Source: Psammoneis japonica
Lineage: Eukaryota
NCBI GenBank assembly: GCA_008632985.1
Contig: QPGO01000039.1
Coordinates: 1 to 64,000 of the forward strand
Length of the DNA stretch: 64,000 nucleotides
Direction of reading: 5' to 3'
Shown here in pieces: positions 1-39,129 of this stretch (positions are counted from its first letter, which is position 1; every line of letters begins with the position of its first letter). Below the pieces are notes generated by a model. That model saw only the letters and a program-made list of their open reading frames with translations. It was not told the origin of the DNA and searched no databases. The translations under genes were made by a program, and so were the position numbers.

Positions 1-737
1 AGAACAAGAACCAACGGAACCCACAAAAGATCAAGTTGAGTCTAAACCAACCACACATGAAAAAGGATGCTGCAGCCCATGGCCCAAAAGGTCAATCATG
101 TGAACATTGTCATGGAACATCCCACACTCCAGGAATGTCCATTTGGCACCATTCAAAAGAGCACCCAAAAAACATGCTCCAGGATGCACAAGGAGCAACA
201 AGAGACAGAGCATTGAAAGGAGCTCACAACATCTCTTTTTGAGAGAGAGAAAGAACAGCTTTCATTTGCCAATCGTTCAATGAAGGCAGCACTTCAAAAT
301 TCAGCTTTCTTCAAAGCCATTTTGTGTGCATGGCAACCACAGGTAAAAAGTGTCATCTCCTTGGTTGCTGGCTTGGCATCACAACATGGGGAATGCCCGA
401 TGCTGCATTGCACATGTGCAGTGTCTGACTGTACCCGTCTTGACTGACTTTGACACCCATGTTCCTCTCACTCCGTCCAGAGTATGGAGTGCTTGGCAAC
501 AGGAAGCAAACCTCGTCTGTTCCTTCTGACTTTCTCTAGAGCCTGGAGAGCTCGGCACCATGAGAAGTTGACAGTCACAACAAGGCGATTTGTCGGCCGC
601 AATGGACGGATATTGCGCGTTGTGATGTTCGGTTGACAGGCAAGATTTTAAAAAAAATGGCATCATGCCAACAAACAGAAGGCGCTCAAAGAAACTTCAA
701 ACGAAATAATTATCGAGCCCTACACATTACACTCGTT

Positions 738-2759: not shown

Positions 2760-4500
2760 CCAGCTACAACAGCTGCCATCGTAACACAGCTTAGCTTGCT
2801 GTCAGACTGTCCAAAAGGATGCCTCAACTGTCAAGCTGCATTGAAGCAACCACAATGATTGGCTTGTTGTCTTTGACACAAAAGCGCCAAACAAAAGGGT
2901 GGTCAAATCGGGACAACAGCCTTCTCAACCTCAAGGAGATCAGCTGCCCAATGTGCTGGCCCCACCTGTGCATTCTGTCCCACCACAAGTGCACAAGTTG
3001 GCCAGGAGCAGCAACAAAGACAGAGAAAAAGCTGGCGTGTGAGACGGCCACACCAAGGTGACTGCTTTGAGCCTGTGGAAGAAGCCAACTTTGCTGCTTG
3101 CGGTCAGGGGGGGGGGGGGGGGACAGCTGCTGTCATGTTGTTGCAACCCAGCACCACAAATCCCCCAGTCTGACAGGTCTCAGTGGTGTCTGAGCACAAC
3201 GCTCCTGTGGCGAAGGTCCGCCACTGTCAACGTATTCCAGCCCCAGGTGATGCACAAAACGACGATCAATTTTGAACATGAATTGTGCGCCTCTCGTGCG
3301 TGGAGCATTTGCACACAAAACACTAAAAGGGAGGGTTTTTTATGGGTGTCTAGAGTGTGAACATTTAACCATTTTTTTCATTGGTGCACATGTTCTCATG
3401 GGATGTGATGCATCAAAAACTCCCTCAGTGGACTCAACGCTGATTGTGCATCAGTGCATTGCGCGCAGAGATTTGCATGCAGGTGGAAGGCATTCCAGAG
3501 AGCATCGTAGAAAAATCATTTGTTGTGACATCAGAATGACAGCAACAACTTCACTGAAAATCATTTGTTGTGTCACAACTCGTTCGTTGCAATGAAAAAC
3601 ATGTGTTGCACAAAAACAATGACGCTGCAACACCCACACAAGTCTTGTCAGTGTTGCAAAACATTTGTGTTTGGATGAATCTATGCTTTTGGCAGAGAAA
3701 GCTTGATCGCAAGTTGGGGACCATGCAAAAATTGTGCAAATGTCATTTTTGTGCACGGTTTGGTTCACGTGCAGCTGGAACACATGTCTGTCATGCAACT
3801 GTGGCTTGCAAGAATCTGGACACACGCAAATTGCAACCATGCCTCCACTTTACCAAGCAGCTCTTGCAGGGTGTCAACACCACCACCATGGGATGATGTG
3901 GCTGCTCCTGGTGATGCACTCTTCTGGCTCATTTTGACCAATGTTTTCTGAGCTCCAAGGATGCAAACTGGGCAACTGGTGCAGACCACAGCTGCAAAAG
4001 TCTTTTGTCCACCTGGCAACACAACAGGTGCACAATGGATGGAGTTGACCTGCCTGCTTGTTTCCAATGCACTCATTTCCTTTGTGACAACACAATCAGA
4101 CAAGCTTGGTCTGGTGCGCACTTTGCCAGGTCAGTGCGGTGTTTGTCTTAGAAAGAGCCAGATCTGCTTGGTTTTCATTCAACAAAGAACACTGCACATG
4201 CTGCAGCATTTTAGACCTGCACTTGTTCTTTTGCGAGGCATCAAGAAAGAAGAAAAAGACATTGAAAATGGGTCAGAGAGAGCCTGCAAAGGAAACAGCA
4301 GTGATGACATCCAAACTCAATGCTGTTTGGTGGCGTGCAGCAACCATCCTTTGCCAATGCATCAAGTGCACCAGACAAGTGACCATGCATCATTCCCTGC
4401 CAGAGAATTATGGTGTGACAAATCTGTTGCCCAAGCTCCACTCCATTTAGGCAAGTTGCGATTGCTGCGTCCAGGCTGCGGTCGAGGGCTTGTTGAGTGA
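2760..4500. repeat. Eroded repeat block (CpG- and TpA-depleted, TG/CA-rich)
   Basis: Almost no TA or CG dinucleotides. Overlapping ORFs are Cys/His-rich and nearly Tyr-free. Contains a TIR element. Confidence 0.7.
3229..3788. mobile_element. Degenerate non-autonomous TIR element (MITE-like), 4-bp TSD TGTC
   Basis: Left end aacgtattccagccccaggtgatg, right end tcacgtgcagctggaacacatgtc. TGTC at 3225-3228 and 3789-3792. The TIR resembles the other elements in the window. Confidence 0.55.
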
Positions 4501-6150: not shown

Positions 6151-6834
6151 TATATTCGACTTCTCTCTTTCGCAAAATGCATTGAAGGTCCACAGAGGAA
6201 GCACTTGTGTTTAAAATGGATAACGCAAGCAACACAACGCCTCGTTGAAGTGCTGGAAACTGGAAGTGCAATTTTTTGTGGCTGAGTATCTGCCGAGGCT
6301 CTTTACGTCAGGCTCTTTCGAAAATCAAAGGCTCTTTTGTGTGTGTTTGTACTGGGTACGTGTCACAGACCACATTAGAGGGAAATGGACAGACGCTCCA
6401 ACCAGGAGAGCAAGCAAGCAATCGTAAGCAATAAGCAAGCTGGAAGCACTCTCTCTCCAGTTTTCTCCTCTTTGGAATGGACGGAACAGTTCTGTGTGCC
6501 AACCAGTGACGAGAAGCTCTGTTGAACTCTACAAGGCGGCACCTTTCCCTTGCCATTCATGGCTGCCCTTTGACCTTGACTGATCCATTGCACAGGGCAC
6601 CGTCGTGCCCATGTTCACCAAGTTGCAAGGCTCAATAAAGGACCAAACGCAAGCGGAGCGAGCCGTTCAAAGAACAGATCCATCATTTTTGGGTCTTCAA
6701 GAATGTTCAGAGATCACAGGTGTGTGAGGCAGTGTCACATGTTGAGAAAGCAACGCAGTCATGATATTAAATCCGATTGGTCGAACTTGCTTGCATAGAG
6801 CTATGCACGACTTTGGTCTCACCAAAGAAAACCA

Positions 6835-8669
6835 TCACGTAGTTTTTGATGACTTCAGCCCATTGTCAGATCCTTGTTCAATCTTGCTCAAGTCTGCCAC
6901 AATGTTTGGATGAGTTGATTCTACTGTTTCAACAACCGGAGACTCGCCAATAGAATTGTTTGTATTGGGGGCCATGGACGACCTGGCAAGAAAGGTGGTG
7001 GTCGCCTCTTCGGTACTTCTGGTGCGACAGGAACAGCAACGCTTGTCACGGCAATACCGTACACACCGTGGCCGTGCATAAGCGATAAAATTTGTAAAGC
7101 CTTGAATGGGAGCAACAAACATAGCAACACAAAGGAAACCGTATCGATAATAGAGACCGGCATCAATCAAGACAATTACAACCAGAATGGGCCAAGACAA
7201 GTAAAAGCACATGAGATACCAAAATCCTTGCCAAAACACCTGACGACGTATCCTTTGCGCGTTGGATGTCATGGAATATGATTCGGTTGCTCGTTGTTGA
7301 TGATACACCTTGATATAAATGTGAACAGTAATGACTGTCGCAAAGAAAATCACAATGCAAATGGGAATCACGAGGAACACAAGACGCTCGGTATCTCCAG
7401 GAATGTAACACATGACGACATCTGCGTCATATTTCGGAATGCCAGCTAGCGCTAAACCCAGACCGAGCGCTAGCGGCGGTCCAAACAGGGCCCAATTAAA
7501 GCGAACGATTCGGTTTTCCTTCCAGCCATAGGATATGACGAGGTTGTAGTAGATTGCAAGAGACAGGTTCAAGAATGGAGACGTGAAGCCAAATTGAATG
7601 AAAAAGCCCTGTGCCGTGCACGTGGCGTCGTTGCCCCGAGCACCATACACGTTGGTGTCTGCTGGCATTGGTAAAGTTGTCAAAGACCAAGCCACGGAGG
7701 CCAAGCAGTCAATACAGCTCATGGTCAAAAGTAGATAGTGTTGCGTTGTCCGTTCACTCTTGGCTTTGCTGCAGATGCTAGAAATAATATACAACGATCC
7801 CTGATATCAAAGCAAACAGAAAGCTGTAAGTTCAAAGGGCGAGTTGAACGTTCATCTCAAAATATCCAAACCACAATGCTGGAAAAGAGTAAGAGCAGAG
7901 ACGGACTTACGAAAAATGACATTGCCGCTGATATCCGGGGTAACCAAGCAAGGATAGCTTGTCGCCGATTGATTTCGGAGGAAGAACATCCACAAAAGAA
8001 GCCCGCAGCTTGATCTTGCCTACAGGAAAGTGTATCATCGTCTACCAATTGAAAGATTGCGCTCTCGACAAGTTCGCACGTGGGATTTTCATAATGCCAA
8101 TGCTTTGCATCCAACGTCAAGTCTGTAGCATATTGTGGCCTGCTCACGTTTTCTCCGTTTGTGCAAAAATGACAAGCATTCTCTCGTATCGGGCACCCAC
8201 ACAGCGGGCCAACAATTTGTGCCTCGAAACATTTTGAGTCGTTGGCCGCAATTGAATGTAAATAGGCATCAAAGATTTCGCAAGTTGGAACGATGCCGTC
8301 AAAGTTGCTTGCCAGAAAGACAAGTTGCTTGTCGAGTCGTGTCGGGATGCTGCCGTCCACGCAGAGTCGGCAAGAGTCCTCAGGTACAGGACAACCACAT
8401 AGTGTGCTAATGTTTTTACATTCTTTAGAGTCCATCTCCAGTGTTGAAGCATACGCATCAAGCATGGAACAATTCTGTACGGGTACGGGCCAAGCTAACG
8501 CGAGCTCCTTGGAGGAAAATGCAATAATTGATGAATCATCTGCTCCGCTGAGACAGAGAGTGCAAGTCTCATTGTTTGCAATGGCAAACGTGTTTAGCGC
8601 ACTTAGCACCACAAACATACGAAATAGATGCCAAGAGGTATGAGAGATGCTTGAGTTTGACTCCATCAT
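6835..8669 (-). CDS. 7TM GPCR-like protein with Cys-rich N-terminal ectodomain (2 exons)
   Basis: Signal-like N-terminus and three CxLC/FC...TCE...CGC repeats. Phase-0 intron 7801-7910 (GTAAGT...ATCAG) joins AAMSFF to GSLYIISS. 7TM motifs CTAQGFFIQ, LSLAIYY, PIQGFTNFIAYARPR. Confidence 0.85.
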
Positions 8670-9224
8670 GGTCTCACTGTAGAGGCGACGAGATACGGAG
8701 ACACACGCAATGATTTCGATGATTTTGTTGCGGCGGGGGTTGATTGAGGTTGCATCTCGGGCATGAGTCACGAGTTTGAAGTTCCATGCAGTCTCGAGCA
8801 AAAAATGACATCATACATCTCATGTTGGATGGGATGCCGGCGGGCCGCGCCATCGTCTGGCTGCAGGAGGAGCCCAGTCGATGACACCGACAAGATTTCT
8901 ACTAGGTTGTAGACTGAATGATGCAATTCAAAATCTCATCCTCATTGAATTCATGCTGGAGAGTCTGCAGGAAGCTTGTCACAAGCTGACACAAACTTGG
9001 TGAGCAACTGCCATGGTTTTCACGAAGCTGCTGCCGGCTGGCTGCTGGAGTGACTTCGCCCCCCACAAAAAAACACGATGGAACCAGTGGCAAGAAAAGC
9101 ACTCTCATCATGTGCACTTTCTGCAAAGATGCTAAAAAAAACCTGCACAATGGTGCCCCACATTCTGGTGACTGTGCACTGTGTGCTGAAACTTCTTGCA
9201 CGCGGGACATTGCAGCGCAGATTT

Positions 9225-9495
9225 GATGGAGATTGTTGCTCAAAATTTGTGCATGAACTTGGGCACTTTGGCAGCCCTCCTGACAGATCCAGGTGGAGGC
9301 ACTGCCTTGCATCAAGATGTGCTTGATGGACAGCTGCACTGAGAGCACATGTGGCTGCACATGCCGCAAATTGTCAGCCACAACAAGCTGCTGGTGCTCT
9401 TTCCTTGGTGGAGATTTTGAGCGCTCATGCATGACAGACGGGTGGCTGGCGGGACAATGGCCAAGCAAGCACAGATGCTTTGCAGCTCTGTTTTT
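9225..9495 (+). pseudogene. Eroded relic of the 3' part of the GT8-like gene at 16160-17571
   Basis: tggcgggacaatggccaagcaagcacagatgctttgcag (about 9447-9485) aligns with tggcggggcagtggccgagtaagtataggtgttttgcag (about 17372-17410). An upstream ggagattgttg anchor is also shared. Confidence 0.7.
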
Positions 9496-9499
9496 GCCT

Positions 9500-10200
9500 C
9501 CATCGGGTCATTCCCAATGTTCTGGTGACTGGGGTCCTTGCCCTGCACTCTCTGCCTCATTTGCTTCTTGGCGCAGCAATCATCTGGGAACTTGGCAAAT
9601 GTGACAGTCTTGTTCTCTTTGTCTTCTTCACTTTCTTGTTGTGGTCATGCAGCTTGGCCTTGTGCCAGCACTCCAGCTCTTTTGGTTTGGCAGCCAGCCA
9701 TGTCTTCATTGGGCACATCACCATCGTGGGCAAACCTCTTGCATTTCATGTCTTCTGATGACCTTGCCAAATGCATTCCTTGCTCATGTTCCTTCTGCTT
9801 GCAATGGATGATTTTTTCCTTGATGTCTTCACATGTTCTTGCATTGCAAGCATTGCTGTTCAGTGATGAAAGGCAAAGCTTCATCTCATGCTGAAAGCTC
9901 CTCTTTTGGACAGTTTTCTTCTTGTTGCATGAAAACTTGTGGCCTTTGTCACCTCTGCCTTGGTTGCGGCCTTGGCCTCTGCCACTTGTTCTGCCTCTTT
10001 GTTTTCTGCCACACATGTGTTGTGCAGAGTTTTGATGTTGAGTGACTTTGTGAAGGTCAGTGTCTGTGAGTGCTGAGCACAGTGCCAGTGACTCCTTTGG
10101 GTGAACATTGAACCAGCAAGTCAAGGTCACCAAAAGGGAATCCTGTGAGCAGGCTTCCTGTGCTGCTTGTTGCACTTACCTTGGTTTCTTGTGGCAGCTG
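9500..10200 (-). mobile_element. Possible eroded Ty1/copia (CoDi-like) gag fragment
   Basis: RGRTSGRGQGRNQGRG followed by EMKL...TCEDIKEKIIHCKQKEHEQGMHLARSSEDM resembles diatom copia gag N-termini. Recognised from memory only. Confidence 0.4.
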
Positions 10201-10949
10201 TCAGAGGTGCACAAATTGTCTGTTGTTGTTTGCACATGTGCACTCAGACACACTCAGCATGTGCATGATGTCAAACTTGCCACCACAACATTCATCAATT
10301 CCCTGGAGATGAGACAGGCAGTGCAGACATGGTGATGCAAATGGTCTCAGCTGGCTCTCTACAATGCAGAGACATTGTCTGCAGACTGTCAAAAATGTGG
10401 GTGGCGCGGTGTGCAAGTCATTTCTGTGGGACACATTTCTCGCTGATTGAACAACCTGATTGGGACATGTCAGTGCAGTGGAGTTTGATGTGTCCACAAT
10501 GTGAAGGGGGGTTGCAACAACATTGGCATCAAAGAGACAATGATTGCAGATGCCGCTCCTTCAGCGCACATGGTGCTGCCTCCACTGATTGAGCCTTGGT
10601 CATTGTGTCAATGTGGGAAGGCACTGACACGCCTGCCACGGGAGAACAAAATGCCAACACAATCATTTTGATGGTTTCTGACATCACACCAGCTGTGGAG
10701 TGAGTCCTGTTTGGCGCAAGTGAGGACTGAGCAGCACACTGTGCACTGGCACACTGAGCCTGACCATCCGAATGCATGGCACTCATCAAAAACTTGACAA
10801 ATGACATTTTTGCTGCCATCCTGTCCTTTCGTGGGGAAAGGCAATGACGCACCAAATGCTGCCTGGGAAATTCATGCCTGCCGTGTTGAGTTCACACACC
10901 ATGATGAGCTTGTGCTCGTGTGATTTTTGCCATCATTTTGGTGGCTTGT

Positions 10950-12960
10950 GACACATCATGGACTTCAAAGTGACCAAGGAGTCCTGCTCCTGTCACCTTT
11001 GCTGGAGTGATTCTGAACTTGTCCGCACTGCTGGAAGGGATGACAAAAAGCTTGTCTCAATCATTGAAGTGAGGAACCCAGCAGCCACTGTGCACTTTGC
11101 CAAATCAGAGAAGCAGTGCAGCTTCAGTGAGGGGGCTTTTGACTTGGCCACCTGCCAAACAACAGATGATGTAATTCCTTGACATCAGCTGTTCCCTCCA
11201 CCATGACATCATCTCCTCCTTTCACAATTCTGATGACATGACATCTGCCTTGATTCCGACGGGTTCCAGTCCTAGGTGGGACTTTTTGTGACATTGGGCC
11301 CGTAGAATTCTACGTGCGAACTCCTTAGTAAAATTATTAAGCAATGGATATATGAATGATCGCCAACAGAAAAAGAGGCAATTTTGCGAACGTATCTCCT
11401 CCTCCACACTTGAAGTACATTCTTTACAGTATGCCCGGGTATATTCTTTAGACATTAAAGAATATACCCAGCGCATTTTTATTGACATAAGTGCAGATAA
11501 CAGAAAGCCTTCGGCTTCGCAAAACAGGCAGTGTGGAACAGTTTTTTATAATAGAACACGTAGAAATGTACGTGCGAAACATACGACGGATGATAAAAAA
11601 TAATTATGTCACAGTTCAGTAGTACGAGGTCCCACCTAGAGCTGGAACACGTCTTCCAATCTTTGGGCTTGCACAACTTTGGACTGCTGATTTCAGAAGG
11701 GAAGATGTTTTGCATCGCATTGCAAAATTCTTCTGGGACTTCACATTCATTCAGTCTCACCAGCTCACCAGCACAGTCAAATTCCAGAACCGGTTTCTCA
11801 AAAACAATTCTGCCTGCCATCAGACACAATCTTTTGTGAAGCATCAGAGTGCTTGTCTCACAACAAGAAAAGCAGTCTGCCTCAATCACCCACCCAAGAA
11901 AGGGCGGGTTCTTGTTCTTTCTGGCTGCATGGCAGCAAAGGGTCTTTGTTCCATTCACACCACAAGTTTCAACAAGCAGCTGCACAGCTCCCTCACTGAC
12001 AGTGGCATGTGTTGTGAAACCATTTTCTTCCATCACAAAGCTGTGCAGGTGTGTTTTTGCTGCAGGTGACCTTGTCCTGCTAGCAAATGGAAGTCAAGGA
12101 TGTCTCCAACTTTTGCCAAATCATTTGTGCTGTCCCCAGTCACTCTTTTGGTTTGATCTTTTGTGAAACACACCATCCAACATGCCAACTCACCAGCAAA
12201 GAAATGTTTTTGAGCGACGATTGTCTGATGGTGGATGCAAGTTTCAAGGTCCCAGCTCAATGTCTTTTTCAGGTGCTTGTCAGCTGTCTTTCATTGTTTC
12301 CCCCACTCTTTCTCAAAAACATCAGAGTTTTCAACAAACAGGGGGGATGCAGATCTGTCTTCATTCACAAACACTGCAAGCAATTGGTCTGAGGTCCATG
12401 AGTGTTGAGCAAAACAACTGTGGAGCCCCTTCTCTTGCATGTTTTTGAGCTCGTGTGATGCAACCGCTTGATCTTGTTTGAGACCACAAGGAATCCTGAC
12501 TGATTCATCCCTGCTTTCCACCAAATCTCAGCTGCTCCAAAGCCTCATTGCAGCCATCCCAAGTGACTCCATTGAGCACAAGTGCATCTGCATTGGTGCT
12601 TTTAATGGCATTGTCCAAGTCTTTTCTCTTGACAACTTGGTCCTCTTGGCAACCTGTCTGATCTGCAAAGACTTGCACTTTGTTGAACCCATTCTGGTCA
12701 AAATGGAACCACACAATTTGCTTCCCTTGTTTTGCCAAACACAGCAGTCATTTTGTGCCACAATGTTGATGACTTTCCTGCACCCAGCAGACCATGGATT
12801 AATCCCAGCACACTTGCCTTGGAAACTTGGTCAACATGATTGAGCAGTTCACAACACTGGCACAAAACAATGGAGCAATTGCTTTCATTTGTGTGGCCTG
12901 GTGCTGTCGTGTTTGGGAATGGGATGGACACAAAATCTTCATCTGACCTCTCTTTCACAG
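10950..12960 (-). pseudogene. Crinkler/CR-type NTPase + restriction-endonuclease-fold gene, eroded and MITE-disrupted
   Basis: Motifs in order: IHGLLGAGKSSTLW (P-loop), IVWFH, LVLNGV, KHFFAG..ACWM, NPPFLGWVIEAD, KPKDW|NQGRCHVI (WNQGGYD, split by the MITE), WQVAKSKAPSLKLHCF. Multiple stops and frameshifts. Confidence 0.7.
11258..11653 (+). mobile_element. Young MITE (396 bp), about 25-bp TIRs, 4-bp TSD TTCC
   Basis: gacgggttccagtcctaggtgggac ... gtcccacctagagctggaacacgtc. TTCC at 11254-11257 and 11654-11657. Retains TA and CG, unlike its flanks. Confidence 0.92.
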
Positions 12961-13583
12961 AAGCAACAGGGCTTGTCTCCCTTCCACTGTCCCTGCCATG
13001 CTTGCTGCCATGGTTTTAGAGGCTGTCATGGTCATCCCTCGCTGCTTGCACTTGCTCAACTCTCTTCTTCTTGGTCTGTCTCATGCTCATCTGGCCCTGA
13101 GTTCAAGTCAGTTGCGAAGTCCATCATTGACCACTCCCCAGCATTTGGAATGAACAAAATGCTCAAACACTGACAAATTGCATGCGTGCACAAAATTCAC
13201 ACATGCAGACCTCGGCAACAGTGTCTGAGCTCTTTCTCCCTCCCAGATTTTCAATGTGCTTTTAGTTCATTCAAGCTGGCTCAAAATGTTTTTTGCAAAT
13301 GTGTCAAAACATCAACAAGCATTGAACTCAACAAGAAGGTGGCACATTTCTCCCACCATTTGCAGCTGCCCTTTGACCTTGGCTGCTCTGTCACACCAGC
13401 TGCCTTCATGCCTGGGCTTGCCAAGTTGCGAAGGCTCAAGAAAGGACCAAACACATGTGGAGTGAGTGACTCAAAGAATTGATCTGTTGTTTTTGGGTCT
13501 CAAAGAACATCCAAAGGTGCGCTGCAGATGTGCAGGCCAGCTTCCTTGTGTGTCAAGCTTGTTTTGGCCTCGAACAAAAACCA

Positions 13584-14700
13584 TCACATTGTTTTTGATG
13601 ACTTCAGCCCATGGTCAGGTTCTTGCTCAATCATTCTCAAGTCCACCACAATGTTTGGATGAGTTGACTCTGCGGTTTTGACAACCAGGAGCTCACCAAC
13701 GGAATTGTTTGCATTGGGGGGCACAGATGGCCTGGCAAGAAAGACAGCGGTTGCCTCTTTGGTGCTGCTGGTGCAACAGGAACAGCAACGGTTGTCATGG
13801 AAATGCTGTGCACACCATGGCTGCAGGCTGCACCTTGTGAAATTTGTGAAGTCTTGAATGGGAGCAACAAACATGGCAACACAAAAGAAACTGCATGGGT
13901 GATGGAGCCAGCTTCAATCAAGACAATGACAACCAGGATGGGCCAAGACAAGCAAAAGCATGTGAGATGCCAAAATCCATGCCAAAACACCTGACAGTGC
14001 ATCTTTTGCACATTGGACATCATTGAACGTGGCTCAGTTGCTCGTTGTTGATGCACCTTGACGCAAATGTGTGAGCTGCAAATGACTGTCACAAACAAAA
14101 TCACAGTGCAAATGGGAGTCATGAGGTGCATTGTTGGATGCCTGGAATCTTTGGGAGCACAACACACAACAACATCTGCACCATGTTTTGTGGTGCCAGC
14201 CAGCACCAAACCCAAGCTGAGTGCAAGCGGCAGCCCAAAGAAGAAGACCCAGCCCAAGTGAACAATCCAGCCCTCTTTCCAGACACAGGGTGTGATGAGG
14301 TTGCAGCAGATTGCAAGAGACAGGCTCAAGAGTGGACGAGACATGAAGCCAAGTTGAGTGAAGAGCCCAGCGCTGTGCAAGTGGTGTTGTTGCCCCAAGC
14401 ACCACACACACCATTGTCTGCTGGTGCTGGCAAAGTTGTCAAAGACCAAGCCACGGAGGCCAAGCCGCCATCACAGCTCATGGTCAAAAGTGGGCAGCAT
14501 TGTGTTGTCCATCCACTCTTAGATTTTTGGCAGATGCTGGCAATGACACACAGCAAGCCCCAGCACTGAAACAAATGGAAAGCTTTGAGTTCAAAATGCA
14601 AGTGGAAAATTGTTCATCTCAAAGGCAAGCACATAAACCACAGCACTGGACCAGAACAACAACAGAGACAGACTTGCAAAAAATGACATTGCCGCTGACC
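13584..14700 (-). pseudogene. Eroded duplicate of the GPCR-like gene (7TM exon + intron; ectodomain deleted)
   Basis: Colinear with 6835-7930, with frameshifts and donor GTAAGT->GCAAGT. Flanking homology extends over about 13300-15185 versus about 6480-9130. Confidence 0.92.
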
Positions 14701-16159
14701 AAAAATGCATGAAATGGGTTCCAAGTCATGCAAGAGATGCTTGAGCTTGGCTCACTCATGTGGCTTCACTGCATTTGTGCTGTCCATCAGAAGTGCTGTT
14801 GGGCAAGACCTCTTCCCCATTGGTCATGAGCGCGAGTCATGAGTTCCAGGCTCCAGCCTCAAGCAACAACTGACATCATGTTGGGGGATGCTGGTGAGTC
14901 ATTCTCTGGCTGCAGGAGCCAGCCACACAATGACAAGATCTCCAGGTTTCAGATTGAGCGGTGTGGTTTCAAATCATCTCACCCACATCAATTTGTGCTG
15001 GAGCATCTGCAAGAAGCTTGTGAAAAGCCAAGACAAACTTGTCAAGCAAAGTTTTTTGGCGCATCACTTGCCCTTTTTTTTTGCACTGCCGCTGATGCCA
15101 GAGTGAAGTCTGCCCCCAGCACAAGAGCTGGATGGAAGCTGTGGCAAGAAAAGCACCCTCAGCATGTGTGCTTTCTGCAAAGTGGTGGAACATGAGCGCC
15201 GGCGCTCTGCACTCCCTGGCGACTGCATGTGGTGCTGCTCCTCCTGGAAAAACTGAAAGAGCAGAGCTTGCACATCACAGGGGGGTGCCCATCCAAACAA
15301 AGCTGCTGAGCATTGGCAAGACAGGCTCCTTGCAGCTGGAGCTCTGCCCAGCATTCATTTTCTTCAAAGGGGGCAGCGCCAGACTTCAAACTCAGTGGCA
15401 GCAGCAAGTGGTGTGCGATGCAAGGCTGGTGTGGCTTCTTTTTTGAAGAGAGAAAGAGGAAAAGAGGTTTTAGTCATGGCGGCCATTGGGGGTCACTGGG
15501 CTGGTGTGATCATGCCACGCAGACTCTGTGTGGCACGCAGCATGCAGCACACAGCACGCACCCTGTGGCCAAAACACACAACCACCAACCACCCACATGC
15601 ACTTTCTCGCACCTGGCAGCCATGGCACTCCTCTCCCAAAGAAGATCTCAAAATGTGTTGTTGTCGACAAAAACGCGCATGTCCCTGCGGCCGACGCCTG
15701 ACCACACACTTGTGATCGCACCGGCACCACTAATTCGTCGTAAAGGAACAGTGACAAACCCTTCTTGCATGCAAACATCATCTGCGTGAGCCATCCCCTT
15801 GACAAGCTCGTCTCACACAATCAAATGCTGTACAGGTGCCGTAGATGGAAACTTTATGTCGTAAAAAATCATTTAACAAAAGGGCAATGGTCAGGGAAAC
15901 CGAATGACTTATTGTGTTCCTGATCGCAATTAGTTCAATAAATTATTTATTTTTAAAGTATATATGTAGATTGAAAATGACTTATAGGATTTAGTTAAAG
16001 GCCCAGTCATTCTGAGATCACTTCCGCTGTCAAGACAAGCTCATTTATCGCCCCCCCCGGAGGATCGCGTCAAGCTGTGTCTGTGTCTCTCGTCTCTCAA
16101 CTCTCAACCTGTTCAAAAGGAAGGGACAACAAAAAACAACTGCTCTATTGTAAACCACC

Positions 16160-22917: not shown

Positions 22918-23630
22918 GCTCTAAAAACACACTGTTGCAGCCAGAGAAGTGAGAAGGTGTGAAAAATGAAAAATGCATGATGTTAGCATGATATGACCAC
23001 CGTTATGCAATTTGAAACATGTTCTGCTGGTCGTGGATAGGGATGTTAGGAAAATATAAATTACCAAATACATATATACACCGAAACAGCTATTCACCAT
23101 GAAAAGTCGATAAACGATGGTTGATGTATGTAACAGTCAACTTCTGATAACATACGAAAATACACAAAACGGTTATTTGTTATTTGGTACAATTTTACGC
23201 ACATATATTATGTACGTAGAAAGAGTACCAACATTTATGTACATCATGGTCTATCATCTGTCAACACGCAAAGCCCGCCATAGACGCACGAAAATGCATT
23301 TTATGGTGATTTGCTCATTGCAACAGATGTTTGCATTGTAAATGTTACACACATGTCTGACTCTCGAATAAACAAGAACAAAGGGAAACAAAAACAGCCA
23401 TGGCTTTCAGCGGCCATGATGGTCCCCTCTTTTCAACCCTGTGGACAATTGAGGGGCATCATGAGGACCGCAGCATTCGACAGCTCCCCCACAGTCGACG
23501 ACCTGTGAGCCGCCCATGATGAAAAACAATTGCTGCAGTCTGTGGTGCACTTTTAAACTTCACCACATGGACTGCAGCTTTCAGAAGCAACAATTGCCCC
23601 ATTTTGTTCCCAATTTGATGCTGAGGACCA

Positions 23631-23883
23631 GGCCTGTTCCAGCCCCAGGTGATGAGCAATCCATCGCTCAAGAGGCCGATTTTCTGTGCAGTTTGGCAAA
23701 TTGAACTCCTTCAAATTTGATTGTTTCGAAAATCGAATGGTGAGTGCACACAAAAAAACATGAGTTTTGTGTGCACTCACCCTTCAACTTGGGAAAAACC
23801 TGAGTTCATTGCACCAAATGCAAAAATGGGCCAGCAGTGATGGGAGTCAAACCTGTCCGCATCACCTGGAGCTGGAACAGGCC
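23631..23883. mobile_element. MITE (253 bp), 24-bp TIRs, 4-bp TSD ACCA
   Basis: ggcctgttccagccccaggtgatg ... catcacctggagctggaacaggcc. ACCA at 23627-23630 and 23884-23887. Confidence 0.85.
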
Positions 23884-25973
23884 ACCATTTCTTTTCCTTT
23901 GTTGCACAAATCATTTCCCAGTTGTCAACCAGCACAAAACTGACAGTCATTGACATCAAGAAAGCAGCAGGAAAGGGTCCAAAGTGAGCGCCATTGTGGT
24001 GCTGATGTTTTTCTTGACTGGACTTCATCCGTTGCACACTTTGAGCCAAACAATGTTTGTGTGTGTTCCATGATGGTGCATTGGTGTGGTGAACATAAAT
24101 TGCTTGAGGAAAAATTGAGCTCTCATTCTGTGGCACCATTTGGCAACAACAGACCCAATGAATCTTCAGAAACGAGATGATGTGGGCACACACACATGAG
24201 ACCTCTTTGCATGTTTTCAGGTGGCGCGCTTCATGCAAAAATGATCTTTTTTTTGTGCGTGTGTGCACCCAAGTCTGGAGCAAGTCTAAAATGCCAAATC
24301 TAAAATTTGAAGTGCCATCACTCCTTTGCCAGCCAGGCTCACACTGCCTGACCCACATTTCCATGCACAGAAAAGTGTGGCAGAAGTTGAGGGGAAAAAT
24401 TCCAGGAGACTGGACACTGGGCCCTTTGCAAGCAAGGAGGGTCAACCCGGATTTCAAGTGTGTTGTGCCACCCGCCCACAGCATGTGCAGCAGAGCGGGC
24501 ACATGTCCAAGGATGGATCAAAAAGCAGAGTTCTGTTTTTGTGCAGGCTCGCCATTTTTGGAAAAAAGGATGCATTGCTCAAAATCATGCACACGTTTGC
24601 CAATTTAAAGATTTCAGCAACAGGCCCAACTTTGTCCACTCACAAGACATTGCAGAGTGTGGAGACTTTCACATGCACACATCTGCAGCAAAACAAGCAC
24701 CAACGGTTGTTGGCATTTCCTGGAAAGTTGTGGTGTCCACCACAAGCAGTGTGATTTTGGTGAGAACGATGATGGTCATTTGAGCTTGACAACAACTGCA
24801 CCAAATCTGACAATTGGTGCAACAAGTGTTTTGGGGGTGTGCTCAGAGGCACCACAAAACAACATGGGCCAAGTGCAAGAAAACAGCTGCAAAACCATGA
24901 GCTGTTTGGGAAAACACCTCTGCACCCAACCTCTCAGCACCACATGCTTCTCACCTGGGATAAAAACACATCAAAAATGCCCAAACAAATCTTGTTTTTC
25001 TCCTGAAACAAGCACATTCATTGTTGTCATTGATGACACAGACTGCACAAAATGCTGCAGTCTTCATTGTGTCATCAAATTTTCCATGAGGTTGAAAAAA
25101 GTGGGCCGTCATGGTCCCTGAAAGCCATGGCCATCATGGCTGTTTTGCTTGGTTTGAATTCCATCTGCAAGTTTTGCTTGCAAGAAGCCATTGATGTGGT
25201 CATTTCAATGAAATGTCTCAGATGTTTGACGCGTGATGAAAAAAATGGTTTTGAGCAAAAAGGGGCATGCGCGCACCACCCAAGTCTGGAACAAATCACA
25301 TGAAAGCCTTTTGTTTGTCTTTTCTCTGCTGACTCCCAAGAATGCAAAACATCTCTTGGCTTGCACAGGCACGTTTTTGGATTGGGTTGCCACTTTGCTC
25401 ACATTGCCCGGCGCTTCTTGGTGCGAGCTCATCCCTGGTCATTTTTCTGGTTTGATCAATGTGCGAGCTGCTTTGTTTTGAATGAAAGAAGAAAAGCATG
25501 GCTCTTCCTGAGATGTGCTCCAGTGCCAGGTAAAATGTGAGCAGGCAATTTTCCCACTTTTCTGGAGAGCAACAGAGGAGTCATTTGAAAATGTCGCAAG
25601 AGTCACAACCAACATTTTGCACAAGAAAAATGTCAAATCATGCAGAAATGCACACAAAGTGTTGCAAGAGGGTGGTTGGAGCTGCTGACTTTGCGGGAAC
25701 TCAGTTAAAATGTTGTCTGATCAAAGGCATTTTGACTTGCATGGCAAAGAGAAACACCTTTTCTGACCAGACAATGTTTCAACAAAATTTCCCAAGAACT
25801 TGACAACTTGAGTGCAGATGGGTTGACAGACTGATGACAATTGTTTCTGGTGCTCTTTTGCACAATTTCTTCACAATGACTCTGAGAGCTGCGATGACTC
25901 CTGTTGTTGTCAACAACTTGTCTTTTGTGTTGCTCAGCTCAAATGCACAGCACCCATGATGTTTGCAATTTTC

Positions 25974-27290
25974 GATGTGTTTTCATCCCAGGTGAGAAAC
26001 GCGCATGCGGAGGTGAGACGTTTCGTCTGTCCCTTTTCCGTCGCCGTGCTTTTTGTGCGAGCAAATCTGACTGGACTTTCCCCCGATTTTTCGTTTCTTC
26101 TTTCCACAGACATGTTTATTTTTGAAAAGCCAGCCGTCATTCTCATTGGTTGAAGGGTGCGCACAAGAAAAGCGCTGTCTCGAAAGCGGCATTTTTTGGA
26201 GTGAAACTGACAGCCATCTGCTTGTTGTTGTTGTTCTGGTGCATTTGAGAGACTGTTCTGCTGTTTCTTTCACCGAATCTGACTGCTTTGAAAGAATGTA
26301 CACATTGTTCATTGCACAAAGAGCTCATGCCAAAAAAGAACGGCGTTCTAACTCTGTCACTTGCATGAGAAAAATCGGGGGAACTGACTTCGCACGTGAT
26401 TTTTTTGCGCGATCGGCCATTTCAAAGATCGACTGATTTGTCGACCTGTGTGGGATGCTTGAGTGAACAAAACAATGGGATTGAAACAGCAGCGTCAAAG
26501 TTCAATGTGTGTCCAGCCATTGTGTGATTTGATGTGCCCAAGCAGAGTTAAAGATGAAATGTTGACAAAATTTCACCGCTCAAAATGACTGGTTCTATCT
26601 CAGAATAAAATAAAATGGCTGCAACACTGAGATGTCGCTAATGGTGTTGTTCTGCTTTACAATGATGAAACCAGCACACTTGCATCTGAGATTCTTTATC
26701 CTCACACACCCTCAAAACCGAACACACAACGATTCTCTTGTCGGCAGCGAAATCTGATGTTGTCGTGCGACCCAAAAGCGTCGTCCATGACGACAAAAGT
26801 GCAGACGATACATCACAAGAATCACAGCAACGTGTCACAGAAACATTCTTCGTTGTCAGCATCCGGTGTCAAGTGGATGGAGCAGCGCGTTGATGAGAAT
26901 CCTGCTTCGCAAGCTGAGGAAGAGAGAAAGAGGCATCAAAAATGTCATGAGTCAAAAGGCCATCCATGAGGCACAACAAAAAACAAAGATCAAATTTTCA
27001 ACCACATCATCGCATTGAGCGTTGTCTTGTTGACCTGTCTCAGCATTCTCACCTTCTCAGTCACAACATCCATTGGTGCAAGAATGGACGAGTTCATGGC
27101 GACGGCATGGTGCCATTTTCGGTTTGCGCGAATTGTGGTTTGTGGTTCGAGACATGGAAAAACATATTTTTACTGTCATGGAGCTCGTTTTTTACTAAGA
27201 TTTTTGGCACTTAATGTACGTCTCATGTAGAAACACGTAGAAAACCTCGTGATGTGTCCAAAAGTTTCTCACCCAGGATGAAAACACATC
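25974..27290. mobile_element. Non-autonomous TIR element (1317 bp), 27-bp TIRs, 4-bp TSD TTTC
   Basis: gatgtgttttcatcccaggtgagaaac ... gtttctcacccaggatgaaaacacatc. TTTC at 25970-25973 and 27291-27294. Subterminal CACGTAGAAA is shared with the 396-bp MITE. Confidence 0.85.
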
Positions 27291-29326: not shown

Positions 29327-30182
29327 TCAAGCATGACCCATAATGTTGTCAATGACCAGCGAGAAGCTGCAAAGCCTCCACATCCCAAGGCTGCCGCCTG
29401 AGGTCCTGATTTCGCCTGAAGAGCTGCACCTGTAATACAGCCACTTGCTACAGAGTTCCATACATCATGTGTACCACGATACTTTTCAACTAGACATTCC
29501 GATCCACCAAACACGCCTGTAATAAAGGCAAAGTTGCGACACCAGTACATGCTTTTGTCGGCTGTCGCTCTCATTGTGTTTTTCATTTGCTCTCGAAACG
29601 GCGCCTGTGGCACCTCCTTTCCACCCACCAGGTGACGGGCGGCGTCGCATCCGACATGGCTCCTAGAAAGACACCCATGAGCAATCCCATGACTCCTCCT
29701 CCAAATACTCCAATGGCCGCTTTGCCCGAGCAACTGTTGGATATCCACTAAAGTCTGGGGGGAGATTCTCACGAGCACCAGCCGTTGTAAACCAGGGTTG
29801 GAAATAGGGTAATTTCTGAATCGATAATTCTTCCAGACACGGGAACGGGTCGATGCAAGGCATTCTCGGGACGGTACCATTCCACGTCTTGTTTTGTCTC
29901 TCCCGACATGACGGTCTCATAAATGCTCTTGTGCTCGTATTTTAGAGGAATAACTTCTCTCACAATTACAGTATCCGACTTTTCACCACTTGATGATTCC
30001 TTCTCAATGATGGTTCGGGAAGGGGAAATGCCCTTGGCTGCTTCTGTGGCGACGCCATTGCCTAACAAAGAAGGGTGAAAAGCTCTGCCCCGCTGCTCGC
30101 TTTCACCGCTGTCATCACCTTTCGGCTCTCTCGAAGAGCGCCTAGGTATAGTAACACGACGGACGACGCACAGGTTTCGCAT
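29327..30182 (-). CDS. TIM22: Mitochondrial inner-membrane translocase TIM22 (several apparent -1 frameshifts)
   Basis: Across frames: SNSCSGKAAIGVFGGGVMGLLMGVFLGAMSD, RNFAFITGVFGGSECLVEKYRGTHDVWNSVASGCITGA, GPQAAALGCGGFAA(F)SLVID. The start is uncertain. Confidence 0.88.
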
Positions 30183-30209
30183 TTGATTGAAGAATCAAGA
30201 AGTGCCATC

Positions 30210-31290
30210 TCAAGCCGCCACTCTGAAAACATGAGGGGAGAGTGAACATGTCAATGTGAGATCCAAGATTGGCAGCACCATGTCACCAACCACCAGCACT
30301 TTCTGCAGAGCATTTCTTGAGCACCGCAGCTCTCTGCCCCACTTTTTTTCTCCTTTTGGACGTGGTGAGACATGTTGGCAGTTGGCAGAGGATACAACCT
30401 CGAAAAGAAACTCTGCAACCACCCAGAGAGGCTGGCAGCTGCAGGTGTGAAAGAAGAGCAGCTGAGGTGAAAATGTCAATCTGGTGTTGTCTTAGTGTCA
30501 CTTGCATCCAGACCCCCAACTGCCTGAGGTGCAGCAACCCAGTGACCCAGCTCTCTTCTTGACACGCGGTGAGTGCACACTCGAATGTCTGTCGTGAGGC
30601 TGAGCAAAAGCAAACAAAGTTGCCCCCCCAACATGTGATCACTGATTTGCCCAATGTTCTTTGACTGTGACAAGTGGTGCTGCCATGTGGGCCCCCCAGT
30701 CAGCACAACACATTGCAGGGAAAGGCAATCTCCTGAGAAACTTTTGAAGCACAGGACGAAATGATGCACCACACCACAACCTCAGAAGAGCGACCCTCCA
30801 AGAGCCAATCTTGAGATCATTGGAGCTTTCACAGCTGTCCAAAGTCAAGTAAAATGATCCTCACATGGAAAGTTTGTGGCCCTTCAAGGGGTCCAGAAGC
30901 TCGCTAAGGAGAACTGTGGTCAACAAAGAAAAAGTCAATGAGAATTTTGGGGCTGCACAACAAGTTTCTTCCATTCTTTGCTGCAGATCACATGCACTCA
31001 TGAAGGGTTTACAATGCAACAACTGGCAGCTGCACTTGGCACTGAGATTTGCTCTTCTTGAGCCGGGTTTGCTGTGCTGCTCCATGCACCAGTGCTTGGT
31101 TCCACGGCATGCAGAAGCGCTCCAGATGTTTTCAAACAATCAACTTGAAAGGGTTTGTCATGAGAAAAGTCCCCAGATAATTTGAAGCAAGCCTCGATCA
31201 TTTCCTGCAGTGCCCCCAGAGAACATGCTGTTTTGACATTGGTGAGGAGGCTACAACAGCACACAGCGTGGAGCTGGAGCAGATGTGATG
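30210..31290. repeat. Eroded repeat block
   Basis: TA/CG depletion; no credible ORF. Confidence 0.6.
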
Positions 31291-32559: not shown

Positions 32560-34000
32560 AATCGCAACACTGCCAGCTAAATCACACATGAGGTTTGTCT
32601 CTTGAGCCCCCCCCCCCCCTCATTGGCTTTTGACCAAACAGCAGCATCAGAAGCAAGGCTGTCAGAAGCAGCAAGCTGTGAGTGCAAATGTGCTGGTCTT
32701 TGCCAGCAGCACCAGCCTTGCCACTGTCACATGTGCAACAAGAGGGTGGGCAGCAGCCCCGAGCAAAAGTGGTCTTTTGCTGCCCATGAAATGTGGCCTG
32801 GAGCAAAAGTGCAGAGTTGAGGGCTGCTTGCACAAACAAGCATGTGGCAAAGCAGCTGGCGGGTCTTGGAGTCAAGAGCCCAGCATGTGGGGTGCAACAT
32901 TTTGGTCTTTTGCTGCCTTTGAAATGTGGCCCAGATGTGTGCTTGTTGATGAGAGTGCACCAGCGGGCTTGGCACAATCATTTTTGCTGTGAGCTTCTTT
33001 TGTCAATGGGCACTGCCACAAAAGCCAAAAGAGCAGCAAAGTCAGGCACAGGACAAGAAGGCAGGAGAGCTTGGTTTGGCAAAGTGCAAAAACTTTGCTG
33101 CAGCAGGCAAAGCTTTGTCCAGATGATGCACTCTGGCCCCAGGTGGGGCAACACATGACACCAGGAGGCCTGCACACAAACTCTGCAATGAAGCCATTGT
33201 CTGGTGCTGAAGAAAACATCGATGGCTGCCAGCAGCCAAGAGGCAACTTTGTGATCAACTTCAAGTGCCCACAATGGAAACATGCTGTTTTTGGTGTGCT
33301 TGGCAGCTGCTTTTTTTACACTCAAAAATGTGACCAACTTGGCTTTGCTCTCAGAGAGGCAGTTGAGCCAGGCTCTGTTGGCTTTGCAAAACACAGTGTG
33401 CAGCATGCGTGAGAAACTTTTTTTGCAAAAGAGTGCGTGGGCACAGAAGTGTGCATGACTTTTGCAAGGAGCTCATGACAAAAAATGCACTCCACCACAT
33501 CCCAGCGACAGCCAGGTCCTGCCTGGAGCTTTTCTGTGGCACATTTCTCACACTTGCTTTGGCTCTGTGGCAGATGATCAGGGTGGCTGCACTCAACACC
33601 GGCAAGATGGCGAGTGACATGGCCACCTCACACAGCAGCTGGGATCCAGCTCACTGTCAACTGTGTGTCACTTTGACCAACAAATTTGCAAGTTTTGGGT
33701 TTTGCAGCTCTTTTGAGCCGCTTCTCTTGAGCTTGCTTTTTGCATGAAAGACACCTCTGCAAGGCTGTTTTCAGGAGACAGCCAAAATGAAACAACATCT
33801 GGGCTGCACATTCTTTGCAGACAAAGGAAAAGTTGGCTGCAAGCAATTTCCCACCATGATCTCACCCTGGCAAACCAAGCAGAACTCAATCGAATCTGCC
33901 TGGAAGTCTCCTGTGCGTGATGCACACAGCGAAAAGTGTTCGGTGACTGCGAACGCATGTCGAAACAACGGGGTGTGGGATGGGACCCCTTTTCTTTCAT
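32560..34000. repeat. Eroded repeat block
   Basis: TA/CG depletion, a poly-C tract near 32607 and an internal repeat ttttgctgcc..tgaaatgtggcc. Confidence 0.6.
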
Positions 34001-34131
34001 CCACCTCTCCACCACTTGCGCAGGCCCATGTGGACCGCGACTGCCCCCCGCGCGCGCAGCCAGGTGCCAAACTCTTGACAGACACCGCGCCAGAAGAATC
34101 TACAGTGCAGCACTGGCTATGCCACGACACC

Positions 34132-35960: not shown

Positions 35961-36199
35961 GGCTGACTTTGAAGTGAGCTTGTGCGAGTTTCTTGAATGT
36001 TAAGAACGATCTTACGAGAGAAGTCAATGGCTCTCAAGGTGTGTCTTCCTGCATCATCAGAGCACACGTTGCACCTGCTTTCTCACAGTGATGTTTTTCC
36101 CTTTTGCATTTTTAAAAATTCTGTGGTAGCTTTCCATCAGTTTGTCAGTGGTTAAGGAAACTACCTGGCAGTACGCGCGCGTGAGAAGTTCACGTGCGA

Positions 36200-36920
36200 C
36201 GTCACCCAGTGGCGCAGGGGGAGGGACGGACGCTGGGCAATGGTGGAACGGAGTCATGTGGGTGGGGAAGGGGATGGATTTCGAGTTGGGGTTTGATGTT
36301 TGCAATTGTAGTTTGGTGGAGCAGCGGGTGAGTTGGTCAGCGAGCGATTTGGTGGTCGCTGGGCTTGGGTTTTGCAGACCCCATTGTGGCGGTGTTGAGG
36401 AGTGGTGGGTCAGGCCAAAGCGTTCGGCAGAGATGGTTTGCCAAGTGGCGGAGGCAGCAGGGAGGATGGCAGACGGGGATTGTTGGGTGCAGGCATGTGC
36501 GGCATGGGCAGCTGGGTGTTGAAAACAAGTTTCGGTGTTCCAAGGTGGGGCGGGTGGAGCGGGTGTGGGGAGGTCTTGGTTGGCGCCAAAAAGGAGGCAG
36601 TGGGCGAAGCATCCTGGTGCTCCCAGGTGGTCAATGGCAAAGGGGATGAGGTGGATGCCAGCGTTGTTGAGAGCAGATGTAAGGGTTGCTTCATGTTGGG
36701 TCTCGTGGGTTCCGTTGAACTTCCGTTTTGTGCTCATGTGGTGTGCCTCGGTGTGAGGGTTGAGGGTGGGGGCAGGCAAGCCAGGAGCAGGCAATGGAGG
36801 AGGTTTGGGGACGGTGACGTCAATGGCAAGGTGTTGGTGGCCAAGGGGGGGATGCAGCAGAGGTGGCTGGAGCAAGTTGGATGCCTGCGTCAGCAGGGCA
36901 TTTGAGGGGGTGAATGAGGT
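36200..36920 (-). mobile_element. 3' restriction-like endonuclease segment of a CRE-like non-LTR retrotransposon (inverted)
   Basis: The minus strand reads KCPADAGI (eroded RPADVGI) ... HLAIDVTV ... LIPFAIDHLG. Confidence 0.75.
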
Positions 36921-38689: not shown

Positions 38690-39129
38690 AGCCAGCACCC
38701 TCACCATGAATGCCTCCTCCCCAATGAACAATTTGGCATGGGCATTAAAGGTGGCCTTGACTGCCTCATGCACGCCACTCACGCTAACATCGAACGCTGC
38801 CTCAACAACACCATGCCAACCCATGCCTTCCTTGCTCTCAACCTCTCCAACTTCAACAAATGCTCACACGACACCTGTCGCGAGCTCCTCAACAACATGC
38901 CCGCCTTCAAACACCTCACCCCCATCTTCGACCTGCACTGCAACACACCAAACACGTGCTGGCACCATGATCCCAACGGCCTCTGGAGCTCCTTTCCCCA
39001 ACCCGAAGGATTCTCCCAGGGATGCCCACTCGCCCCTCCATTTTCTGCCTCAGTCCTCAGTGTTGTCCTCAAACAACTCAACGCTGAACTCTGCCAACGC
39101 CTCCCATCCTCCAATGTCACATCAACTGC

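Follow-up and report, generated by a model that had tools for sequence, protein, structure and literature searches.

Introduction

A literature search for hypermutation that removes TpA, with most subscription journals outside its reach, returned a single account, a preprint on Bigelowiella natans (bioRxiv 10.64898/2026.01.13.699255). According to its available text, 231 of the 302 nuclear mutations found in mutation-accumulation lines of this organism lie in two integrated viral regions, and 230 of these 231 are A>G/T>C changes, all at TpA. One of the targets is a 186-kb giant-virus insertion, single-copy and transcriptionally silent. The rate is about 6e-7 in the targets against 3.5e-10 elsewhere, and this in some lines only. 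As the agent, the authors suggest a DNA adenine deaminase that resembles ADAT2, and they note, in their Discussion, ADAR's preference for an upstream U. Here, we describe a stretch of 64,000 nucleotides from Psammoneis japonica (GenBank assembly GCA_008632985.1, contig QPGO01000039.1, positions 1 to 64,000 of the forward strand; hereafter the window), nearly half of which has lost almost all of its TpA and most of its CpG to TpG and CpA. As far as the available text of the preprint allows the comparison, the process is of the same kind as the TpA hypermutation of B. natans, in another organism and in a far more extreme form. An earlier reading made from the letters of this DNA (the sequence-only reading) had proposed an undescribed, repeat-directed mutation system. 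The word undescribed has to be given up, since TpA>TpG/CpA hypermutation has been measured in B. natans, and, as set out below, repeat-directed lacks support as well.

Other known systems resemble parts of what we observe. Fungal repeat-induced point mutation (RIP) likewise is a targeted transition mutagenesis that disables DNA which is invading or not essential and marks it with a dinucleotide footprint; it changes C:G to T:A, mainly at CpA, and thereby creates TpA (RIPCAL abstract). Deaminases of the TadA, ADAT2 and ADAR kinds turn A into G after a 5' U or T neighbour, and are RNA enzymes in their known roles. The decay of CpG through 5-methylcytosine (5mC) is the obvious comparison for the loss of CG.

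TpA and CpG are lost from the same tracts

We segmented the window with a two-state hidden Markov model that used TA positions only, with parameters of our own choice (0.035 against 0.0015 TA per bp). The result was 11 TA-poor tracts that add up to 30,304 bp (47% of the window); a mosaic composition is also apparent in 1-kb bins. The poor tracts hold 83 TA, an observed/expected ratio (O/E) of 0.04, where 1924 would be expected by base composition and 1020 at the O/E of the normal tracts, a shortfall that rules out chance. The normal remainder (33,695 bp) holds 1234 TA, with an O/E of 0.53. Tract by tract, TA O/E ranges from 0.01 to 0.09 in the 11 eroded tracts and from 0.43 to 0.99 in the 11 normal ones; the contrast is about 13-fold and the borders are sharp. 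CG played no part in the segmentation. Its O/E nevertheless stays at or below 0.40 throughout the 11 poor tracts and does not fall under 0.75 in any of the 11 normal ones (p=8e-5), with overall values of 0.31 in the former and 0.92 in the latter, which are the gene tracts. The eroded tracts, with their O/E values, are the following.

1..343: eroded tract cut at the window edge; TA 0.04, CG 0.12
2793..4408: eroded tract containing a mostly eroded copy (~3233-3790) of a miniature inverted-repeat transposable element (MITE); TA 0.09, CG 0.31
8911..11272: eroded tract containing the eroded gene fragment 9242-9488; TA 0.03, CG 0.22
11638..15730: eroded tract with 8 TA in 4093 bp; TA 0.03, CG 0.22
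23370..26548: eroded tract; TA 0.05, CG 0.40
30153..31177: eroded tract; TA 0.08, CG 0.30
32579..34100: eroded tract; TA 0.01, CG 0.26
36173..46804: largest eroded tract, with TA and CG both lost at 41-46 kb; TA 0.05, CG 0.39
51310..53383: eroded tract; TA 0.04, CG 0.31
57323..58598: eroded tract; TA 0.02, CG 0.31
60238..62419: eroded tract; TA 0.04, CG 0.13

The other dinucleotides of the poor tracts set them apart from the products of RIP: while TpA falls to 0.04, CA/TG rises to an O/E of 1.79 (GC 1.27, AT 0.82), and A:T>G:C changes dominate at TA. The likeness to B. natans is closer. As the preprint's available text has it, hypermutation there is also restricted to certain nuclear regions while the rest is normal, as in our 11 eroded and 11 normal tracts, and its long-term footprint is also low TpA with high CpA+TpG. 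The extent differs. In B. natans the same text counts two viral insertions and 124 small clusters (Rho_TpA at most 0.43), with 3.3% TpA in the main target, whereas here 47% of the window stands at a TA O/E of 0.04; TpA makes up 6.0% of the B. natans genome, with its few depleted clusters, and 2.1% of the window.

Most of the eroded DNA is anonymous. A self-comparison in a purine/pyrimidine alphabet found no partners within the window for most of it. Open reading frames (ORFs) of at least 90 aa are abundant, 161 in 30 kb on both strands, because TAA and TAG are impossible without TA and long frames therefore run free of stops. Pfam searches with 150 of these 161 left 149 without a family, so that no gene can be recognised there and a transposable-element or viral origin is unsupported; the lone weak match (Ilm1, E=0.003) was judged spurious. 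Neither is there an asymmetry between TG and CA beyond +/-0.12 in tracts longer than 1 kb, hence no sign of a bias linked to the transcription or replication strand. Within the largest tract, the region 36.9-41 kb is C-rich (C 35-45%), with TA near 0 and CG O/E around 0.5-0.7, and the segment upstream of it (36057-36929) is G-rich, i.e. its skew is reversed. By eye, we read 36.9-41 kb as a relic resembling a long interspersed nuclear element (LINE), as the translation of 39429-40370 recalls the C-terminal part of a non-LTR (non-long-terminal-repeat) reverse transcriptase; this translation has no Pfam match.

Paired copies give the direction of change

The mutational path can be followed where an eroded sequence has a normal counterpart in the window. 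The longest such pair involves a gene for a seven-transmembrane (7TM) receptor. Contigs from two public data sets, X1 (DNA) and X2 (recorded as 'DNA?'), bear on this and other parts of the window.

13272..15272, minus strand: dead, truncated 7TM receptor copy, within the eroded tract 11638-15730; 78% identity to 6436-9200
6436..9200, minus strand: live 7TM receptor gene, with a weak Pfam 7tm_2 match; the stretch from ~8911 on is itself eroded
7800..7909, minus strand: intron of the live gene, confirmed by an X2 contig joint (7799>7910); normal composition, with 5 TA and 3 CG

The X2 contig in question is spliced and spans 6823-7799 and 7910-8702. A local alignment of 6400-9200 with 13200-15300, from which we counted ungapped blocks of at least 20 nt, gave 20 blocks totalling 1456 nt at 78.2% identity, with homology extending over 6436-9200 and 13272-15272. 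Exon 1 of the dead copy is short by about 700 bp, 14699-14829 being the sole match to 7932-8760 of the live gene. None of the 44 TA of the live gene is kept in the dead copy (19 became CA, 17 TG and 8 something else), and only 5 of the 64 CG are kept (27 CA, 25 TG). Overall, 74 transversions stand against 244 transitions (A>G 68, T>C 66, G>A 57, C>T 53). Double changes also occur, CA>TG 14 times and TG>CA 15 times (29 of 249 sites), as expected if TA and CG are unstable intermediates. The splice donor on the minus strand reads GTAAGT in the live gene (~7903-7908) and GCAAGT in the dead copy (14672-14677), and the dead counterpart of the intron (14559-14676) contains 1 TA and no CG. The sequence-only reading had quoted this donor and two stretches (7534-7560 against 14291-14317 and 7053-7071 against 13802-13820) as examples of TA and CG converging on TG/CA; rereading the DNA confirms all of them, and the tabulation by dinucleotide context that it had asked for is given by the counts above.

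Outgroups tell which copy has changed. We aligned 16 of the 21 database homologues of the 7TM exon 6835-7806 (minus strand). At 110 non-synonymous codon differences between the copies, the outgroups decide 85 times for the live gene and 8 times for the dead copy and are tied at 17; at those that remove TA the figures are 23, 1 and 6. All 17 aligned Tyr codons are lost in the dead copy, to Cys (10), His (6) or Arg (1), and at 11 of these 17 positions Tyr is present in at least 10 outgroup sequences. Thus the earlier proposal that Tyr turned into Cys or His, with the changes on the dead copy, stands, and so does the claim of a directional and dual erosion in which both TA and CG become TG/CA, which the pair counts and the outgroup polarity agree upon.

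The second kind of pair is a fragment, 9242-9488, of the gene at 17199-17413, which keeps 0 of 6 TA and 1 of 8 CG and has a donor changed from GTAAGT to GCAAGC. The third involves one family of MITE-like elements, which are about 390 bp long and bear the terminal inverted repeats GTTCCAG..CTAGGTGGGAC / GTCCCACCTAG..CTGGAAC. Its copies in the window (11257-11650, ~3233-3790, 38300-38653 and 39129-39506) range from intact to heavily TA-eroded.

11257..11650, plus strand: intact MITE-like element with terminal inverted repeats, surrounded by eroded DNA; 33 TA, TA O/E 0.99
38300..38653, minus strand: eroded MITE copy, inverted; 2 of 30 TA and 7 of 16 CG kept
39129..39506, plus strand: eroded MITE copy, direct; 3 of 24 TA and 10 of 14 CG kept

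The same TA can settle differently in the two eroded copies: where the normal element has GGATATATG, one has GGATGTGTT and the other TGACACATC. Such discordance can arise only if each copy decayed independently from an ancestor with TA. When the four normal/eroded pairs are pooled, 5 of 104 TA are kept, 35 are TG, 45 are CA and 19 are something else, while 23 of 103 CG are kept and 70 are TG or CA. That 80 of 104 TA went to TG/CA recalls the near-exclusive A>G/T>C change at TpA given in the preprint's available text for B. natans.

A flank rule at TpA, and two separable losses

The few TA that survive in eroded DNA are not a random sample. The ratio TA/(CA+TG) in eroded tracts is 0.0022 for RTAY (R, purine; Y, pyrimidine), 0.0106 for mixed flanks and 0.028 for YTAR (chi-squared p=2e-15). 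In normal tracts the order is reversed (0.32, 0.23 and 0.165), which makes the depletion about 144-fold, 21-fold and 6-fold, respectively. In the pairs, RTAR sites became CA 18 times and TG 8 times, and YTAY sites TG 8 times and CA 2 times (26 against 10, p=0.011). Together, the residual flanks and these outcomes mean that the edited A lies in 5'-TAY-3' or, equivalently, the edited T in 5'-RTA-3'. The fractions of A>G change in the pairs follow suit, 0.59 at TAC, 0.41 at TAT, 0.30 at TAA/TAG, 0.13-0.24 at VAY and 0.06-0.11 at VAR (V, any base but T). The weaker A>G excess at VAY accounts for the deficit of AT and the excess of GC in the eroded tracts. The sequence-only reading had inferred a second, context-specific A:T>G:C activity at TpA beside CpG decay, and both the activity and its specificity, now sharpened to A>G at TAY, are upheld. 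The 5' T also agrees with the preference of TadA, ADAT2 and ADAR, and the best context, TAC, matches the native site of TadA, which makes an enzyme of this kind a candidate.

Cytosines behave otherwise. C>T fractions in the pairs are 0.28-0.40 at NCG against 0.13 at TCA, 0.03 at TCC, 0.05 at TCT and 0.18 at CCT. This is different from APOBEC/AID, as there is no C>T enrichment at TC/WRC. It also bears on the idea of a single DNA deaminase acting on both A and C, which would remove TA and CG with no part for 5mC. Such an enzyme would explain why all 11 TA-poor tracts are poor in CG as well, and amphioxus ADAT2 is said to edit A and C in DNA (cited in the available text of bioRxiv 10.64898/2026.01.13.699255). 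Yet, C>T outside CpG is not raised (from 0.03 at TCC to 0.18 at CCT), and the flank preferences are opposite: that of CG is weak and runs against that of TA (0.104 against 0.064). The two losses also come uncoupled. Eroded MITE copies keep 5 of 54 TA and 17 of 30 CG at 7.7% background transitions, and in the 36.9-41 kb region TA is close to 0 but CG stands at 0.5-0.7. TA loss thus outpaces CG loss and is separable from it; younger tracts and the relic at 36.9-41 kb are where CG lags. We consider a single dual deaminase improbable; the lag of CG and its opposite flank effect argue for two mechanisms in the same tracts.

A rate can be estimated if the old tracts are at equilibrium, crudely, with equal influx rates and transversions ignored. 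Under these assumptions, the exit rate relative to the background transition rate is given by (CA+TG)/(2xTA), which is 41-43, and by (CA+TG)/(2xCG), which is 6-8. The CG half resembles 5mC decay in its symmetrical products (27 CA and 25 TG from 64 CG), in this rate of some 6-8 times the background and in being confined to non-genic tracts. Such decay covers only the CG half of the erosion, and cytosine methylation of these tracts is itself something we presume. Finally, sequences can be ranked from the intact MITE through the eroded MITE copies to the old tracts (TA 0.02-0.04, CG 0.1-0.2). This graded series points to a slow decay with age once a sequence falls outside a gene unit.

Normal composition follows gene units

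The normal tracts coincide with genes: CitMHS-like, CobW, 7TM, GT8-like, AMP-binding/DIP2-like, a collagen-like repeat, STAND NTPase and DAGAT. Within 1-20000, X2 has contigs on three gene tracts, with introns skipped, and it is probably a transcriptome data set, i.e. cDNA-like. No X2 contig falls on the eroded tracts of 1-20000, although absent cover is no proof of silence. Normal composition reaches 200-400 bp past the X2 contigs, into flanks resembling untranslated regions (UTRs), and it includes the introns that these contigs skip (7800-7909, 16950-17043 and 17390-17485, with GT..AG borders), which hold 16 TA in 300 bp (O/E 0.62-0.75). As these introns are normal while the dead counterpart of the first has 1 TA and no CG, normal composition belongs to the gene unit and does not result from coding constraint.

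These observations weigh on a simpler account, that of a uniform genome-wide bias against TA and CG from which purifying selection alone rescues the genes. In its favour, normal tracts do coincide with genes, and even there TA O/E is merely 0.53. Yet, introns are normal, the intact MITE is non-coding and has a TA O/E of 0.99, gene tracts keep a CG O/E of 0.92 inclusive of UTR-like flanks of 200-400 bp, and the contrast in TA is roughly 13-fold, with sharp borders. We regard this account as very unlikely.

Two further remarks concern the genes themselves. The long ORF at 48928-51048 (plus strand) consists of nine-base units, about 170 in number, whose translation gives Gly-X-Y-like repeats with a weak Pfam Collagen match; it is GC-rich, with a strong positive GC skew and a CG O/E of about 1.2. 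No deaminase domain was found among the 14 main ORFs of the window, and a gene for an oxidase of the kind considered below is likewise missing from it.

Erosion does not depend on duplication

In the sequence-only reading, duplication triggered the erosion, as in RIP but with different chemistry. This would agree with the fact that every alignable pair is necessarily a duplicate (the receptor copy, the 9242-9488 fragment and the MITE copies), and eroded DNA might consist of ancient repeats past recognition. Yet, some repeated DNA is untouched. The DAGAT gene (58645-59817) has its 3' half repeated 4.3 kb downstream at 97% identity, the homology beginning abruptly at 59238/63525; the second copy continues beyond the window, and the duplicate is thus at least 476 bp long.

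59238..59713, plus strand, and 63525..64000: DAGAT gene segment present twice, the copies differing 13 times over 476 bp and each of normal composition

Four of the 13 differences are TA<>TG/CA, with TA in the 63.5-kb copy, numbers too small to interpret. The MITE is a second case, since one copy of a multi-copy family is intact while others are eroded. It is matched by numerous X1 contigs with differing flanks, the 1791 X1 contigs over 20 kb show many loose ends at this element, and its summed word depth of 27,000-35,000 shows many family copies but gives no copy number. Moreover, the source copies of the pairs (6436-8910, 17199-17413 and 11257-11650) are of normal composition, whereas RIP, which needs duplication, mutates both copies. 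For the greater part of the eroded DNA the window offers no partner, and 149 of 150 eroded ORFs lack a Pfam domain. Nor is its depth that of a repeat: X1 contig word depth is 55.8-66.1 in eroded DNA against 58.2-64.2 in genes. Repetition is also unnecessary in B. natans, where a target is single-copy (bioRxiv 10.64898/2026.01.13.699255, available text); here the same appears at the scale of the window, from the spared duplicate and MITE and from the equal depth. With 47% of the window eroded, mostly as anonymous DNA at the depth of neighbouring genes, and with a duplicate at 97% identity, 476 bp or longer, and an intact copy of a multi-copy MITE left uneroded, the repeat-directed part of the earlier proposal is not supported, and we give it little credence, about as little as the uniform bias.

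The eroded tracts in public contigs

One may wonder whether these tracts exist, or whether modified T and C were misread in DNA that truly retains TA and CG. Both palindromic dinucleotides becoming TG or CA is what strand-specific miscalls would look like, and the records of the runs name no platform. Against this, X1 contigs, built solely from that run, reproduce the eroded tracts nearly letter for letter, as in 2839 bp over 11626-14461, with 6 substitutions and 3 gaps. The indels of the window relative to X1 and X2 are of the sort that a long-read assembly would show, so the read sets are probably of a different data type. Furthermore, the dead copy also differs by transversions (74), by indels and by the loss of some 700 bp, the MITE copies show graded erosion, and the B. 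natans signature was called from Illumina reads (bioRxiv 10.64898/2026.01.13.699255, available text). A sequencing or base-calling artefact is extremely improbable.

The indels deserve a comment of their own. Public contigs carry single-base insertions relative to the window at 859, 903, 1302 and 1462, and also at 12073, 12849 and 12882. At 859 and 903, X1 and X2 both disagree with the window by single-base indels. The contig insertions likely mark assembly indel errors that split the CitMHS-like frame (ORFs 738-1310 and 1447-2532).

Differences between the window and X1 give a glimpse of more recent change, for the 40 of 197 differences that were listed and with an X1 sample that is the same as the likely source of the assembly. 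Of these, eroded DNA (8414 bp) has 33 and normal DNA (7594 bp) has 7, a 4.3-fold excess for the former (p=1e-4). A TA (9) or a CG (15) stands on one side in 24 of the 33, and the listed differences affect 5 of the 23 residual TA sites. The differences listed fit a continuing hypermutability.

Discussion

We think it likely that a regional, context-specific process turns TpA into TpG/CpA in all DNA outside gene units, and that in the same tracts CpG also becomes TpG/CpA. The substrates would be the dead receptor copy, gene fragments, MITE copies, the LINE-like relic and anonymous spacer. The decay would be slow and ongoing, with no single burst, so that fresh insertions still retain TA, in older copies TA went first and CG afterwards, and in the oldest tracts an equilibrium may hold in which new TA and CG are quickly driven to TG or CA. 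The TA step would consist of A>G at 5'-TAY-3', or T>C at 5'-RTA-3'. What the sequence demonstrates is the mutational signature with its direction, regional limits and flank rule, and that it does not depend on duplication. For the eroded tracts we infer a chromatin that is transcriptionally silent and cytosine-methylated; ordinary 5mC deamination would presumably account for the CG half.

For the TA half, deamination of adenine to inosine in DNA is our leading candidate, with an ADAT2/TadA-like enzyme, a plausible suggestion that we advance tentatively. As TA is a palindrome, an oxidised thymine (5-hydroxymethyluracil or 5-formyluracil, 5hmU/5fU) pairing with G would leave an identical footprint, and thymine oxidation with a product that mispairs with G is the less probable, indeed unlikely, chemistry. 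The native site of TadA reads UAC, and A34 of tRNA is, as far as known, always preceded by U33, which favours adenine deamination.

Several points weigh against this interpretation as a whole. The evidence comes from a single 64 kb window. The comparison of the window with X1 covers 40 of 197 differences within the same sample. Two of the three introns (16950-17043 and 17390-17485) rest on an X2 contig that is 6-15% divergent from the gene at 16-17 kb and is probably the transcript of a paralogue. The contrast could equally come from a process that acts genome-wide by default, with transcribed units shielded from it. Finally, such tracts are absent from a pair of long contigs that come from distant 7TM carriers. 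Homologues of the receptor occur at 7 metagenome loci with 35-41% identity; the pair of long contigs, of 7.6 and 16 kb, belongs to this set and seems to stem from one organism. These two have TA O/E of 0.62-0.68 and CG O/E of 0.87-0.91, with no depleted 500-bp bin (lowest bins, TA 0.36 and CG 0.57), and they are too distant to judge whether erosion occurs throughout the lineage. Best protein identities to proteins of the window are 58% and 59%. In a single-gene tree, the window gene adjoins a clade of diatoms and raphidophytes but lies outside it, with support of 94/86, below the star threshold. The diatom source assumed in the sequence-only reading is not confirmed by these comparisons.

The process that we favour, decay at TpA and CpG outside gene units, differs from the described case in its targets. 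These are viral or foreign in the available text on B. natans, whereas here they are a host gene copy and fragment, MITEs and anonymous spacer. That host-derived DNA is eroded argues that the target is set by chromatin state, not by foreign origin. The coincidence of TA and CG loss likewise suggests guidance by methylated or silent chromatin. In the available text of the preprint the terms CpG, 5mC, trinucleotide, flank and context do not occur, and the co-erosion of CG and the TAY rule are, relative to that text, features of this window only. What is new here is therefore the extreme and apparently constitutive extent in a second lineage, the host-derived targets, the coincidence with CpG loss and the TAY rule.

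TpA-specific hypermutation was previously known, within the reach of our literature search, from one species and one preprint; the window shows its end state elsewhere. The MITE family, intact and eroded, and the dated gene duplicate provide a built-in time series of the decay, and the extended motif TAY narrows the search for the enzyme. There is also a practical risk, since TA-free DNA gives spurious long ORFs that annotation based on ORFs will miscall as genes. More broadly, it is conceivable, at somewhat less than even chances in our view, that P. japonica practises a constitutive, chromatin-guided DNA editing, A>G at TAY outside transcription units, which together with CpG methylation leaves half of its genome free of TA and CG. 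If so, this half would be without TAA and TAG stops, TATA boxes and TA target sites. Taken together with B. natans, a member of Rhizaria, TpA editing would then be a widespread and ancient mechanism of genome defence or genome shaping across distant eukaryotes.

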